NCBI GenBank assembly: GCA_965267275.1
Contig: OZ253950.1
Location: forward strand, 121,333-185,332
DNA from: Pseudomonadales bacterium
GTDB lineage: Bacteria; Pseudomonadota; Gammaproteobacteria; Pseudomonadales; Azotimanducaceae
Reading direction: 5' to 3'
DNA length: 64,000 bases
The notes under the pieces were generated by a model. It saw only the letters and a program-made list of their open reading frames with translations, was not told the origin of the DNA and did no database searches. Of the stretch, positions 15,170 through 36,363 are shown in pieces. A program made the translations under genes and the position numbers. Each line of letters begins with the position of its first letter. Positions within the stretch are counted from its first letter, which is position 1.

Positions 15170-15246
15170 GGGCCTATAGCTCAGTTGGTTAGAGCAGTGG
15201 ACTCATAATCCATTGGTCCCAGGTTCGAGTCCTGGTGGGCCCACCA
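15170..15246 (+). tRNA. tRNA with CAT anticodon, most likely tRNA-Ile2 (lysidine); integration target
   Basis: GGGCCTA/TGGGCCC acceptor stem, AGCTCAGTTGGTTAGAGC D arm, GTGGA-CTCATAA-TCCAT anticodon arm, CCAGG-TTCGAGT-CCTGG T arm, encoded CCA. Position after rpoD is typical of Ile2 (knowledge). Confidence 0.95.
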
Positions 15247-16759
15247 TACCAACATTGCCACCGCCAAAGTGCTCTAAGAGCTTGAAAGGTAAGGTGGTTT
15301 CGGCGGTTCTATATCCCTCGTTTCGCACATAGGTCGGACGTTCCCTAAAAGTGAGTTTTAGCACCGCTCTCTTGTCTTCAATGTGCTTAGAACTCCATAA
15401 AAAACAAGGATTTGCCAAAAAGGCACAGGCGGTTCTATAAAGTTCATCAAAGTGCCTTAAAGGTCTGCCCAGCTTCCCTATAGTTTCCTGTGTTTCCAGT
15501 TTCTGTCTTTCCATCTCTTTGATCTGCTCTTCATAAGCGTTTATCAAAGACGGTGAATCTGTATTAACAACCCGACTCACGAGCTGCGATGTTTTGCGCT
15601 CAAGTGTTGCCAGTTGCGCGCGGAGTTTTTCGCGTCTTGAGTTTTGAAATGCGAGCTGGTGTTCCCACTGATCGCGGAACATCGCGAGCGCAAGTTTAAG
15701 TAGACCGGGCGAAGGCTTGTAAGACGCTAGAAGCTCGCCAAACTCTCCTTCGATTTGATCGCGACGAATGGACTTACCGTAGTCGTCGCACTTGCGGTTC
15801 TGGCAAACGTAGTAGGGGTAGTGTTTATTGCGTCCCTTCGTCCAGGAGGCGGTATAAGGCGATCCGCATCCACATTGAACGAAACCTCTCAAAGGGAAAT
15901 CGATATCTAAGTTTTTGCGCGCCGGTGCATGCGCTGTTTCATTCAGACGCTCCTGAACTTTTCGGTAGGTCGCAATTTCAATTAGACCTTCATGGTGCCC
16001 CTGACGAGCACTTACGTCCCATCCGTCTTGGGTAGCCTCCACAATGCCCGCATAGAGCGAGCGCCCCAAAATGTCCGCGACTTGTTGACGCCGGACTTCT
16101 CCGTGTTTGTTCCTTGGGAACTCCGGATGCTTCTCAAAAAAGCGGCCAACTTCTGCCTGAGTCTGAAATCGGCCTGAAGCAAAACCTTCCAAGCCCTCGC
16201 GCACGATGCTGGCAAGTGGCTCATCTTGAAGCAATATTTTGCCTCGGCCCTTTACCCGCTTATAACGATAGCCGACTGGCGCTCTAAATACCCAATATCC
16301 GTTCATAAGCCGAGCGCGCATGCGGTTGCGGACTTGTTCGCCGTTTAAAAGGCGTTGATGCTCGCTCACTGTGGCGAGTACCCGCTCAACAAGTATGGAA
16401 TGAGAATCCTCTCCGAATTCAACAGAGGGCGATTCCAAGACCCCTCCAGCTTCAGCGATAGCCGACCTCAATGCTAGATGCGCCTCAAGGCCTCTAGCCA
16501 GGCGGGAGATGTCATCAATAATGCAAACCGTCGCGGCTGGTTTTCTTCTTCGCATGAATTTAAGCATCGCTTGCATGCCGGGCCGATCGATCAATCCACC
16601 GGAAAGATCATCTTTGAAAATCTCAATGACGTTCATGCCGCGGTAGCTCGCATATTCACGGCAACGCGTCTCTTGCGAGCCGAGACCATCACCTTTAACG
16701 GTTTGCTTGGTTGAAGATACGCGGCAATAGATAACAGCTTGGTTCGGTTCTTCGCTCAT
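15203..16759 (-). CDS. Large serine recombinase (integrase); C-terminal 14 aa encoded antisense to the tRNA
   Basis: AVIYCRVSS catalytic motif, DDISRLAR, recombinase domain (APVGY), zinc ribbon LRGFVQCGCG...YYVCQNRKC, coiled coil. Confidence 0.93.
   Translation of the reverse strand: MSEEPNQAVIYCRVSSTKQTVKGDGLGSQETRCREYASYRGMNVIEIFKDDLSGGLIDRPGMQAMLKFMRRRKPAATVCIIDDISRLARGLEAHLALRSAIAEAGGVLESPSVEFGEDSHSILVERVLATVSEHQRLLNGEQVRNRMRARLMNGYWVFRAPVGYRYKRVKGRGKILLQDEPLASIVREGLEGFASGRFQTQAEVGRFFEKHPEFPRNKHGEVRRQQVADILGRSLYAGIVEATQDGWDVSARQGHHEGLIEIATYRKVQERLNETAHAPARKNLDIDFPLRGFVQCGCGSPYTASWTKGRNKHYPYYVCQNRKCDDYGKSIRRDQIEGEFGELLASYKPSPGLLKLALAMFRDQWEHQLAFQNSRREKLRAQLATLERKTSQLVSRVVNTDSPSLINAYEEQIKEMERQKLETQETIGKLGRPLRHFDELYRTACAFLANPCFLWSSKHIEDKRAVLKLTFRERPTYVRNEGYRTAETTLPFKLLEHFGGGNVGMVGPPGLEPGTNGL
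15241..15247 (+). repeat. attL core (CCACCAT)
   Basis: Overlaps the tRNA CCA end; identical 7-mer at 36357-36363. Confidence 0.75.
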
Positions 16760-17055
16760 TCTTGATCACCTTCGATTTGGTCCAGCGCGCGTTGCGCGCT
16801 CTCTTGGAATTCAGCGTCCAGCTGCTTCAGCTGGCTTTGTATATGCTCGGTAAAAATCTGAACCGAATCCAATCCAAATCCGATATCGACAAATACTCGC
16901 ATCATGTTCCAGAGTGTTTCTAAGAACTCTTGCGCCTGATCTTCAGGTATTTGCATTTCATCGAGATAGGTTTGGTAGCGCTTTGGATTGAGGCGCAAAG
17001 GTTCGGCTCGTTCAATCTGACATTCATCAATTATTTCTTGTACACCCTCTGTCAT
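16756..17055 (-). CDS. Hypothetical protein coupled to the integrase start (candidate directionality factor)
   Basis: ATG at 17055 preceded by AAAGGA; stop overlaps the integrase ATG by 4 nt; 99 aa. Confidence 0.7.
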   Translation of the reverse strand: MTEGVQEIIDECQIERAEPLRLNPKRYQTYLDEMQIPEDQAQEFLETLWNMMRVFVDIGFGLDSVQIFTEHIQSQLKQLDAEFQESAQRALDQIEGDQE

Positions 17056-17191
17056 TTGGTGCCGTCCTTTCTTAAAGTTTTTGGGCTTGCGTTCGTCTCC
17101 TTGTTGAATAGAACAAAAGAAGAACACTTATCAGTTTTGCTGGCGGTTGCGCAAGCAAAAAATGGAGCACGGATTCACTTTTTAGTGGAAA

Positions 17192-34515: not shown

Positions 34516-34565
34516 TAATCTGCATTCTTGAATATGCGAAAGGTCAGATTTTGTGGCGTTGGTGG

Positions 34566-35825
34566 CTAATCCCGGCTTCGTTCTGAGGCCCTAAAGCGCG
34601 AGTTTTCCCTGTTAGCCATCATAGTCTCCTTAAAGCGGGTGATATCTGCGCTGATCTCTTGTTTCTTACGCTCTTTGAACTGCTCTAAGCGATCGCTGCG
34701 AGCGCCAAGGGACCGGCGGGCTTCAAGTTGCTCGAATATCAGCGCGTCACGCTCTTTCTGATCGCGATTCTGCGCTTCTAAGAACTCCGCTTCATTTTGT
34801 TTTTTGATCTCCCGGCGTTTGCCTGAGATCGCATCAAAAAGCCCGAGCAAACCCTTTCGAAATCTCTCCTGGCGCGTCCGCGCTTCATTTTGCGCGCGCG
34901 TCTCTTGCCGCCAAATAAAATCAGCGCGCAGTCTTTGTTGTTCTTCGATTAAGTCTTTTCGTTTTTCTTCGATGAGCTTTTGCCGCTCACCTATTTTATA
35001 AGCGCGCTCGGCCTGCAGTCTTTGAAGCCGATTGCTCACCTGATTTACCAGCTGATTTTTTGATTCAGCAACGCCCGGTAAGTCTTTGGGATCACCTAAT
35101 TTTACGCGGGTTTCTTTGCTCCTGATTCCGGCCCACTTAGAAACCGAATAAACCTCGCCTTGTAGGTCAACCGCCACGAAGCCGCGCCGGTCTCCTCTGG
35201 CCAGGATATAGCCCTTATCCTTTAGGGCGCGTTCAAAGCTTTCCCGCCCATCGCTTACTGCCCAGCTTTCGGCAAAAGCGGCCTTGATCTCTTTGGGTGA
35301 TTGCTGGGTGCGTTTTGCCTGTTGCCACTGCGCCAAAGTGAAGTTTTCCAGGCTGCGCTCGGTTTCTTGAACAAAGCCTCTTGGCATCTGCCAGCCATGT
35401 TCGAGATAGAGCTCTTTAGAGATATCCATCAGCTTGCGCTTGGTATGCGAAAGCTGGATGGCTTTCATGGCCTTAGCGTCTATTCGCGACCAGACCGCAT
35501 GGGCATGACGCCTCCCTTCTTTTTCATGAAAGACAACGGCGCGTGGCTGGTTATCAAGGCCGAGTTTCTTTTCGACTCGATCGACTGCTTCTTCAAACGC
35601 CACAGTCTCAACCCGTTGATCTGGGGGCGGGTTGAGGCTGAGGCTAAATAGAAACTGCTTTGCTTTGGTTCCCCGGCTCAGCGCATAGGCTTCATTGAGC
35701 GCCGAAGGCAAGTCGGGCGAAACAAAGCCTCGAAGTTCATGGATTTCCACATGATCGTTTTCATCTTTGAGAAGATGAGCAGCCAGGTTCCTTGCCCCGC
35801 CGCGCTGATTGCCCTGGAGGATCAT
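34566..35825 (-). CDS. Relaxase (MOBP/VirD2-like)
   Basis: FSLSLNPP, HEKEGRRHAHAVWSRID (3H motif), coiled-coil C-terminus; ATG 35825 overlaps the mobC stop. Confidence 0.85.
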   Translation of the reverse strand: MILQGNQRGGARNLAAHLLKDENDHVEIHELRGFVSPDLPSALNEAYALSRGTKAKQFLFSLSLNPPPDQRVETVAFEEAVDRVEKKLGLDNQPRAVVFHEKEGRRHAHAVWSRIDAKAMKAIQLSHTKRKLMDISKELYLEHGWQMPRGFVQETERSLENFTLAQWQQAKRTQQSPKEIKAAFAESWAVSDGRESFERALKDKGYILARGDRRGFVAVDLQGEVYSVSKWAGIRSKETRVKLGDPKDLPGVAESKNQLVNQVSNRLQRLQAERAYKIGERQKLIEEKRKDLIEEQQRLRADFIWRQETRAQNEARTRQERFRKGLLGLFDAISGKRREIKKQNEAEFLEAQNRDQKERDALIFEQLEARRSLGARSDRLEQFKERKKQEISADITRFKETMMANRENSRFRASERSRD

Positions 35826-36259
35826 TTTTCGTGCCCGGGCCGTAAGCCGAGCGCGATAAAGAGACAATCACGCATGGCAAGAACGGCTTGAGCGGCTTCT
35901 TCAAGCTGGGCCTCAACGTCGTCCCTGACATCGATTGTTCCGATATTGGCCGACTTTGCGAGCTGATTGAGATTCGAGCTCAGCCTGGAGCGGCCTAACT
36001 CTGCCAATACTTGGGCAAGTTTCTGTTCATCCACGCGCGGCTTTCGGGATTTGCGCCGCTTAGTGGCATCCTCACCGAAAAGCCGTTCCCGAATGAATGC
36101 GCCAAGGGGTTGATTTCCAGCCTGGTCTTCGAGGATCTGCCGTTCGCGCCGTGAGAGCCGCAGAGAGAAGGGCGCGGGTCTATCCAGCTCTGGGTTAGGC
36201 TTGCAGGCTGCTTCGTTGAAGTTAGTGCGATATGATTTAGGTGTTGACGGAGCGCTCAT
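35822..36259 (-). CDS. mobC: Mobilisation accessory protein MobC
   Basis: RHH-like FSLRLSRRERQIL, LAELGRSRLSSNLNQLAKSAN; AAGGAG RBS. Confidence 0.85.
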   Translation of the reverse strand: MSAPSTPKSYRTNFNEAACKPNPELDRPAPFSLRLSRRERQILEDQAGNQPLGAFIRERLFGEDATKRRKSRKPRVDEQKLAQVLAELGRSRLSSNLNQLAKSANIGTIDVRDDVEAQLEEAAQAVLAMRDCLFIALGLRPGHEK

Positions 36260-36363
36260 TATGATGGCTCCTTAAATGAAGGGACCTCAGTGGTCAGATA
36301 GTCGTTCCATTCTTGAAGAGTTTCAAAAAGGTGGTTCGAGGTTTGTCCCTCTAGGTCCACCAT
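36259..36363 (-). other. Orphan in-frame 34-aa tail predicted to become the integrase C-terminus after excision
   Basis: MVDLEGQTSNHLFETLQEWNDYLTTEVPSFKEPS*; begins exactly at the attR core (ATGGTGG); its TAA overlaps the mobC ATG. Confidence 0.7.

Follow-up and report, generated by a model that had tools for sequence, protein, structure and literature searches.

A mobilizable island with attP inside its own serine integrase gene: predicted state-dependent integrase C-termini in a tRNA-targeting clade

A 64,000-nucleotide stretch of the genome of a Pseudomonadales bacterium of the Azotimanducaceae (assembly GCA_965267275.1, contig OZ253950.1, positions 121,333 to 185,332; hereafter the window) contains an island of ~21 kb, which a sequence search delimits to 15248-36363 with CCACCAT at both ends. 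Judged by its genes and its ends, the island is an integrative mobilizable element (IME) at the CCA end of a tRNA(CAU) gene. Its large serine recombinase (LSR) gene, int, carries the attachment site attP inside its own open reading frame (ORF), as deduced from aligned sequences, and the two DNA states, integrated and circular, are predicted to encode integrases with different C-termini, of 12 and 32 residues, respectively. Taken as a whole, an IME with attP inside int and a state-dependent Int tail is very probably the best explanation of the observations described below.

The integrase ORF occupies 16759-15203 of the minus strand, encodes 518 residues as integrated and ends ...HFGGGNVG|MVGPPGLEPGTNGL*. 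The body of the protein (residues 1-504; 15248-16759, minus strand) matches the Pfam Resolvase family (PF00239, E 6.7e-21) at residues 8-154, the catalytic domain of LSRs, and Zn_ribbon_recom (PF13408, E 2.2e-9), and PF07508 is recorded for many of the homologues. Residues R13 and S15 are invariant in a 57-sequence alignment, and the window int is intact, with all family-invariant residues present; its domain content thus identifies the window integrase as an LSR. The integrated-state C-terminus (15203-15247, minus strand) is antisense to the tRNA acceptor and T arms, the last 14 codons of the gene being the reverse complement of the tRNA CCA end, acceptor stem and T arm, and the last ~9 codons of the LSR body double as the P' arm of attP. 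At the far end of the island, the minus strand holds an alternative tail frame, MVDLEGQTSNHLFETLQEWNDYLTTEVPSFKEPS* (36259-36363), consisting of 34 codons and a TAA stop at 36261-36259. Joining the two ends keeps the frame and gives 504+14 residues in the integrated state vs 504+34 in the circle; the residues M-V belong to the shared core, hence the two forms equal Int(1-506) followed by 12 or 32 residues, with the recombination core inside the 3' end of the int ORF and 32 codons ahead of the circle-state stop. The attP core and P arm coincide with tail codons 1-10, codons 12-23 encode a conserved amphipathic helix (LFxxLxxWxxxL), and the TAA stop shares its final A with the ATG of a nikA-like gene (TAATG, 36261-36257). 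An earlier note on this DNA had described an ORF crossing the tRNA end, an in-frame 34-codon alternative tail and two resulting isoforms. Its coordinates, its placement of the cores and its arithmetic (504+14 vs 504+34) were all correct on recheck, the crossing ORF and the tail were confirmed with a junction that agrees with the attB/attL/attR alignment, and the proposal of two state-specific isoforms holds at the coding level, where attP is predicted to lie within the int ORF and the C-termini to differ.

The core copies are located at 15241-15247 and 36357-36363, and a step in GC content from ~0.60 to ~0.50 coincides exactly with 15.0-36.4 kb. An empty-site relative was looked for and found in G001, a complete genome of the same genus in which the island flanks abut with a 10-bp overlap and attB reads ...GGTGGGCCCACCAT|GTCGTCCGCG. 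Runs X21-X23, which bear the same species label, were also considered as a source of the empty site and were set aside as too divergent. In the alignment to G001, attL matches attB through 15247 and attR matches attB from 36357, and a C/T mismatch at 15240/36356 in the attL/attR/attB alignment confines the crossover to the 7-bp core. Because this alignment places the crossover in the core, the circle junction is predicted to read TCTAGGT-CCACCAT-ACCAACATTG, within a predicted attP of ...GGTTCGAGGTTTGTCCCTCTAGGT-CCACCAT-ACCAACATTGCCACC... that would join the two frames in phase; the predicted junction strings are TCTAGGTCCACCATACCAACATTG for attP and GGGCCCACCATGTCAGCC for attB. Identity between the island ends amounts to 7 bp only. 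The step in GC content, the IME gene content between the cores and the empty site in G001 are three independent lines by which the boundaries are firmly placed. No direct repeats of the tRNA 3' half longer than expected by chance were detected anywhere in the window, and the own genome holds no second copy of int, the tail, nikA or the relaxase gene, the island being single-copy.

The core in attL (15241-15247) comprises the last acceptor-stem bases, the discriminator and CCA, plus one further T. The attR site (36330-36363) consists of the P arm, with the T-arm look-alike GGTTCGAG, whose distance from the core exceeds that in the tRNA by 5 bp, followed by the core at 36357-36363. The right flank (36364-36610) is a tandem of two ~125-bp units with two hairpins each, the second unit being preceded by a degenerate second attR-like site, GGTTCGAGGTTGGTCCTTTTTGGCCGACCAT (36455-36488), after which the B' hairpin flank is repeated. 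Both the degenerate site and the tandem arrangement recur in the empty-site genome G001; the site is thus not part of the present island, and the arrangement, older than the island, resembles a scar left when a member of the same element family inserted earlier.

The geometry of these sites resembles that of known LSR attachment sites. In the window and in two related loci, L073 and L034, the antisense T-loop motif TCGAAC occupies positions +19..24 of the tRNA arm, counted from the N of NTGG, and positions +24..29 of the P arm. This shift is the one by which LSRs tell attP from attB, the zinc-ribbon motif being 5 bp further outward in attP. Both the minimal identity between sites and the ~5-bp outward zinc-ribbon motif in attP that mark LSR sites are present here. 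In phiC31, the zinc-ribbon domain occupies attP positions 17-27 and the half-site ends at about position 27, a footprint with which the geometry in the window is consistent. A centre of symmetry at 15243/15244, within the core, relates the TCGA of the tRNA arm to the CTCGAG of the B' flank, which makes this position the probable crossover dinucleotide. The conserved 'SN'/'LN' of the tail represents the attP site in translated form, in a stretch with dual coding.

The target, which forms the B arm of attL, was identified with ARAGORN as a tRNA gene with anticodon CAT (15170-15246, plus strand). It is intact after integration, an identical tRNA is found in the empty-site G001, and it is positioned just downstream of rpoD (13224-15065), a location from which it may be tRNA-Ile2. 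In at least 12 genomes of the same genus the two halves of the tRNA(CAU) gene are ~260-310 bp apart, with the break right after the anticodon (window position 15206/15207), and in the relative G014 (L021, 2465-2725) they are separated by a group I intron (Rfam RF00028, 73 bits); the copies in the window and in G001 are intron-free. Beyond the window, a tRNA was found on the opposite strand beneath the int 3' end in 16 of 18 genomic int loci, and the tRNAs under int in homologous loci included those for Arg (four anticodons), Ser (three), Leu and Met/Ile. The int frame is fixed across these targets because the core always holds NTGG, the complement of CCA plus one base. Reading of the universal T arm would explain how the clade uses many tRNAs.

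The overlap between int and a tRNA gene is reflected in the protein databases, where 2706 homologues of the integrase were found at 55-60% identity. About 54 of 57 aligned homologues end in (K)M(A/V)xPxGFEPxT...SIQLSY, which reads as a translation of antisense tRNA, GFEP deriving from GGATTCGAACC and QLSY from the D arm, and none of the 57 has a stop before the core. For the distal end, 71 related loci were fetched with the relaxase as a handle, and a tblastn search with the 34-residue tail located a homologous tail frame directly 5' of the nikA-like gene in 58 of 69 loci, a strongly positive outcome for the conserved in-frame distal tail that the earlier note had proposed to look for in homologous islands. 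The tail consensus is M(V/A)(R/H)LEGETSNxLF(E/D)TLxEW(N/E)xxL; in one subgroup, an insertion of ~25 residues separates the two parts of the tail with the frame retained. Both ends could be compared on one contig for L073, a complete 4.5-kb element in a Sphingobium tRNA-Leu, and for six larger islands, and in each case they share an 8-11-bp core in the same frame. Considered together, these comparisons indicate that an att core inside the int 3' end is the rule in a large clade targeting Arg, Ser, Leu and Met/Ile tRNAs. The L073 element (2437-6953, in tRNA-Leu(CAA)), with the shared core TATGGTGCCCC, is a minimal family member of ~4.5 kb containing the tail, nikA, the relaxase gene, a two-gene cassette that by eye resembles a BrnT/BrnA toxin-antitoxin pair, the small-protein gene and int, and it would make a convenient experimental model. 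On one Nitrospirales contig (L065), two copies of the tail helix are found ~1.5 kb apart, at 819 and 2369, upstream of the relaxase module, and may reflect tandem or nested elements.

The codon pattern of the tail separates two regions. Across 57 unique tails, second-position entropy is 0 at the helix residues L, F, L, W and L and third-position entropy is 1.4-1.9 bits, a signature of selection on the protein, and the first ten codons show the reverse pattern, as for a DNA site. Conservation upstream of nikA might represent a DNA signal, an attP arm and/or an oriT, with the open frame incidental. The first ten codons are indeed DNA-like, with T(C/T)GAAC fixed at +24..29 (44 of 46 short-type tails) and less variable third positions, and an oriT is usually located upstream of relaxase accessory genes. 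For the helix, however, a DNA signal is largely refuted, given that beyond +30 nt the second positions at L, F, L, W and L are invariant and the third nearly saturated, that the frame is maintained across insertions and that the phiC31 half-site would already have ended; we consider a pure DNA signal highly improbable.

A protein reading of the tail is also compatible with structure prediction. The protein folded was P0159, a contiguous relative of 346 residues (not the window protein), from a 136-row alignment that included body+tail fragments. The AF2 model, with a mean pLDDT of 86.8, has long paired helices at 154-232 and a tail helix at 316-330 (block pLDDT ~85) that follows the zinc-ribbon strands and a linker with pLDDT 67-70, and its best PDB matches in Foldseek were the SPbeta-type, phiC31, LI and Bxb1 integrases. 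The amphipathic spacing pointed out in the earlier note is thereby borne out, being conserved as protein and confidently helical in the model of this relative. L034 had been considered as a full-length folding template and was dropped, since its int contains in-frame stops.

The fused arrangement predicted for the circle is represented in the databases. In L034 and L146, int, the tail, nikA and the relaxase gene are contiguous, with the int frame continuing through the tail. A profile built from the last 45 Int residues and the tail, run against 1.84 billion cluster representatives, gave 1564 matches at E<=1e-3 and 115 at E<=1e-10, and ~95 of the best 150 matches cover both halves uninterrupted, for example ...YHRNEGYRTAKTTLPFNVLRGICGDKCQMVRLEGETSNTLFETLEDWNTYL... 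Tail-directed word-index protein searches, with the own tail or the consensus tail, returned no candidates because the tails are too variable to share 5-mers. The L034 gene (906-2531) and L135 are two different LSR genes of the clade in one single-cell genome of an uncultured Kordiimonas, with two and one in-frame TAG codons, respectively, and zero frameshifts; these could be pseudogenes or reflect odd TAG usage in that genome.

Several findings limit the evidence for, or weigh against, an IME with a working, state-dependent Int tail. A 34-codon open frame is expected by chance with a probability of ~0.2, (61/64)^34, so the open frame alone is weak evidence, as is the 7-mer alone, CCACCAT occurring nine times on the plus strand of the window; the matter is decided by the relatives compared above. 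The fused proteins matched by the profile are fragments of 60-346 residues, and the contiguous examples that could be inspected are decayed or partial: int has two in-frame TAG codons in L034, one frameshift each in L146 and L148, and is 5'-truncated in L144, L145 and L147. No intact full-length integrase of the attP form was recovered among the contiguous examples, although clustering of the protein library at 50% would hide intact circle-form genes among integrated forms. In plasmids, a tblastn search for a contiguous tail gave six matches, every one of which stops at the core. An exact search of metagenome and genome contigs for the predicted attP junction returned zero matches, and Logan contigs of the source-sample runs X1-X4 contain only the integrated form, with neither the attP nor the attB junction. 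A comparison of the tail with the ELIETLW helix of the small protein encoded upstream of int (described below), as a possible case of mimicry, was not significant (hhalign P 0.017, probability 2.7%). Finally, tails invariably start with NTG and end coupled to nikA, and they could also act as leader ORFs.

The missing junctions bear on whether the island still moves. It might be a fixed, immobile remnant in which the second isoform is never made in this strain, a view that fits the absence of the junction from the contigs of X1-X4 and from the other contigs searched, as well as the single island copy in the genome. Yet int, both att sites, the small protein, the coupling protein, nikA and the relaxase gene are all intact, and Logan contigs cannot reveal rare excision; a dead remnant therefore seems to us rather unlikely. 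In X1-X4 the island is represented by one Logan contig of 21,299 nt (15218-36516). Its word depth is 1.1-1.36x that of the left flank, and the right flank is as deep or deeper, figures too crude to imply circular copies.

A leader function is another alternative. The tail frame would then mainly be a leader or coupling ORF for the nikA-relaxase operon, bringing ribosomes to the overlapping stop/start, and its fusion to Int in the circle a by-product without effect on recombination. In 50 of 55 loci the stop codon of the tail and the start codon of nikA overlap (as ATGA in 35 of these), the nikA Shine-Dalgarno sequence AAGGAG lies inside the tail, and the first tail codon is always NTG, with NTGG starting 45 of 46 unique short-type tails (29 ATG, 6 TTG, 5 GTG and 5 CTG). 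Decayed elements, moreover, often retain the int C-terminus, the tail, nikA and the relaxase gene as a block: in L144, L145 and L147 only the C-terminal third of int is left, fused to the tail and followed by nikA and the relaxase gene, and it looks as if this junction block was retained when the remaining int was lost. A pure conduit, on the other hand, needs no amphipathic helix conserved in its amino acids and modelled with the confidence given above. The 30 nt upstream of the 46 short-type tails show zero consensus, as expected for host DNA, so the tail has no conserved start context of its own; no conserved ribosome-binding site is seen there either, 5 of the 46 begin with CTG, and all 57 aligned homologues read through the core. 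We regard the leader alternative as unlikely and return to the IME with a state-dependent Int tail.

For such an IME we propose the following cycle. After transfer and recircularization, the circle would express Int-538, which would integrate at the tRNA; integration would remove the tail and yield Int-518. Together with a small protein, the probable directionality factor, Int-518 would perform excision, which would restore the tail and bring int, nikA and the relaxase gene together, in that order, in a single operon with translational coupling, and the mobilization genes would be fully expressed from the circle only. The small protein, of 99 residues and acidic (16756-17055, minus strand), is encoded by a gene whose stop overlaps the int start (ATGA). 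Of the 20 related loci that were examined, 16 conserve it at this position ahead of int and with the same coupling, its family has the core motif DLSxEQKxELIETLWxIMxxFVDLGFG, and searches of Pfam and NCBIfam returned no match; position and conservation make it a candidate recombination directionality factor. Because its translation is tied to that of int, it should be produced whenever Int is, in either state, and for this reason a state-dependent tail is attractive as a switch.

The tail helix most likely tunes Int activity or directionality; it may alternatively stabilize the enzyme or be a mere passenger. A stronger version of this idea gives the tail a true directionality role, as a built-in switch that works without separate regulation of the directionality factor. 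The helix present in the circle state would dock on the zinc-ribbon/coiled-coil region and either license attP x attB recombination or keep the small protein from acting; the chromosomal isoform, lacking the tail, would remain accessible to the small protein and catalyse attL x attR recombination. Which of the two reactions the recombinase carries out would thus depend on the DNA state of the element. We hold this stronger version to be doubtful.

The remaining gene content of the island is that of an IME with defence cargo. On the minus strand are genes for a TraG/VirD4-like type IV coupling protein (17487-19172; Pfam T4SS-DNA_transf 1.3e-28, also recognized by NCBIfam), a 460-residue protein with a C-terminal HTH_3 domain that is a possible regulator (19680-21062), a MobA/VirD2-type relaxase (34566-35867; Pfam Relaxase 3.2e-15), the handle for the 71 related loci, and the NikA/MobC-like relaxase accessory protein (35822-36259), whose ATG overlaps the tail-frame stop. 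The cargo is on the plus strand and comprises a type I restriction-modification (R-M) system (21639-29505) with hsdM, hsdS, an embedded PDC-S02 nuclease-like gene and hsdR, and a Hachiman system (30237-34515) with HamA at 30237-31010 (PADLOC, 1.3e-98) and HamB at 31000-34515 (PADLOC, E=0). The plus strand also has a gene for a YgjP-like metallopeptidase (29502-30212). The embedded gene, at 25466-26407 between hsdS and hsdR, is PDDEXK/NucS-like and matches the PADLOC candidate system PDC-S02 (E 1e-155). No further components of a type IV secretion system were found among the ORFs of 15.2-36.4 kb, and the island has no phage genes. The combination that defines an IME, an integrase and a relaxase (and an oriT) without mating-pore genes, is thus seen, apart from an oriT, which was not located, in int, the relaxase, the NikA-like protein and the coupling protein.

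Placement of attP within an integrase gene has precedents. In its account of the Myxococcus phage Mx8, PMC6070905 (citing Tojo 1996 and Magrini 1999) describes an attP within int and an integration that generates a recombinant int (intP to intX) with a new 3' end and altered properties. Here, as in Mx8, attP is placed in the integrase coding sequence and integration changes the int 3' end, the Mx8 product being altered and still active. The target of Mx8 we take to be a tRNA gene locus. Unlike the LSR of the present mobilizable island, which is free of phage genes, Mx8 Int is a phage tyrosine recombinase, and in the family described here a whole clade conserves the swapped tail, which is coupled to a relaxase operon; to judge from its sequence, the window system works like Mx8 and is not a member of it. 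A parallel with a serine recombinase is offered by the ssrA-specific islands of Dehalococcoides, which carry DsiB and are also IMEs (McMurdie 2011, PMC3146451). The window int ORF shows the integration feature reported there for DsiB; the authors speculated that the enzyme may have its full function on the circle only, judged a functional role of the overlap unlikely and identified no distal tail (PMC3146451). In contrast to the window element, DsiB targets the tmRNA gene, uses a ~20-bp direct repeat and is accompanied by a second small serine recombinase, DsiA. None of the DsiA, RecF-like, ParB and Mom genes of those islands is present in the window island, which is likened to DsiB by description only.

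Phage LSRs (LI/A118, phiC31, Bxb1 and SprA of SPbeta) share with the window integrase the domain architecture, the fold, short att sites, the 5-bp attP displacement and, if the 99-residue protein is a directionality factor, control of directionality by a small accessory protein. They differ in that attP lies outside int and the same enzyme is present in both states, and they insert into protein genes or intergenic sites instead of tRNA 3' ends. In mycobacteriophage integration-dependent immunity, the repressor loses a degradation tag, and integration of the archaeal SSV1 type splits a tyrosine integrase gene in two; in these systems, as here, an att site inside a gene lets the DNA state determine the protein, and both use tyrosine recombinases. 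Circularization of Tn916 and Tn4451 creates a promoter or read-through transcription, not an altered recombinase; the resemblance to the present case is that transcription or translation units become linked over the joint, which here would connect int with nikA and the relaxase gene. In its listing of serine-recombinase IMEs, a 2017 review places them only in Firmicutes and within protein genes (PMC5704250). Full-text literature searches covering serine integrases, the position of attP and the targeting of tRNAs returned no account of an LSR clade directed at tRNA genes or of a swapped tail that is conserved. The novelty suggested in the earlier note is therefore partial: the principle of an attP inside int was already known from the tyrosine integrase of Mx8, and it is for the conserved tail in an LSR clade that targets tRNAs that these searches gave no earlier description.

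The clade has practical consequences for genome analysis. Its int genes are systematically mis-terminated in annotated genomes, and programs that find islands through repeats of tRNA fragments will overlook members of this clade, whose repeat, at 7-11 bp, is too short for them. For the insertion of large DNA into genomes, LSRs are the principal enzymes, and how their direction is controlled matters both in practice and for the mechanism. In this widespread natural clade, the recombination product would rewrite the C-terminus of the enzyme itself, with a conserved helix involved; the clade shows that serine integrases do use tRNA genes and offers a simple, testable candidate for self-encoded control of directionality or commitment. 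In the bacterium studied here, the arrangement would explain how a defence island with type I R-M and Hachiman systems can tie the expression of its mobilization genes to excision.

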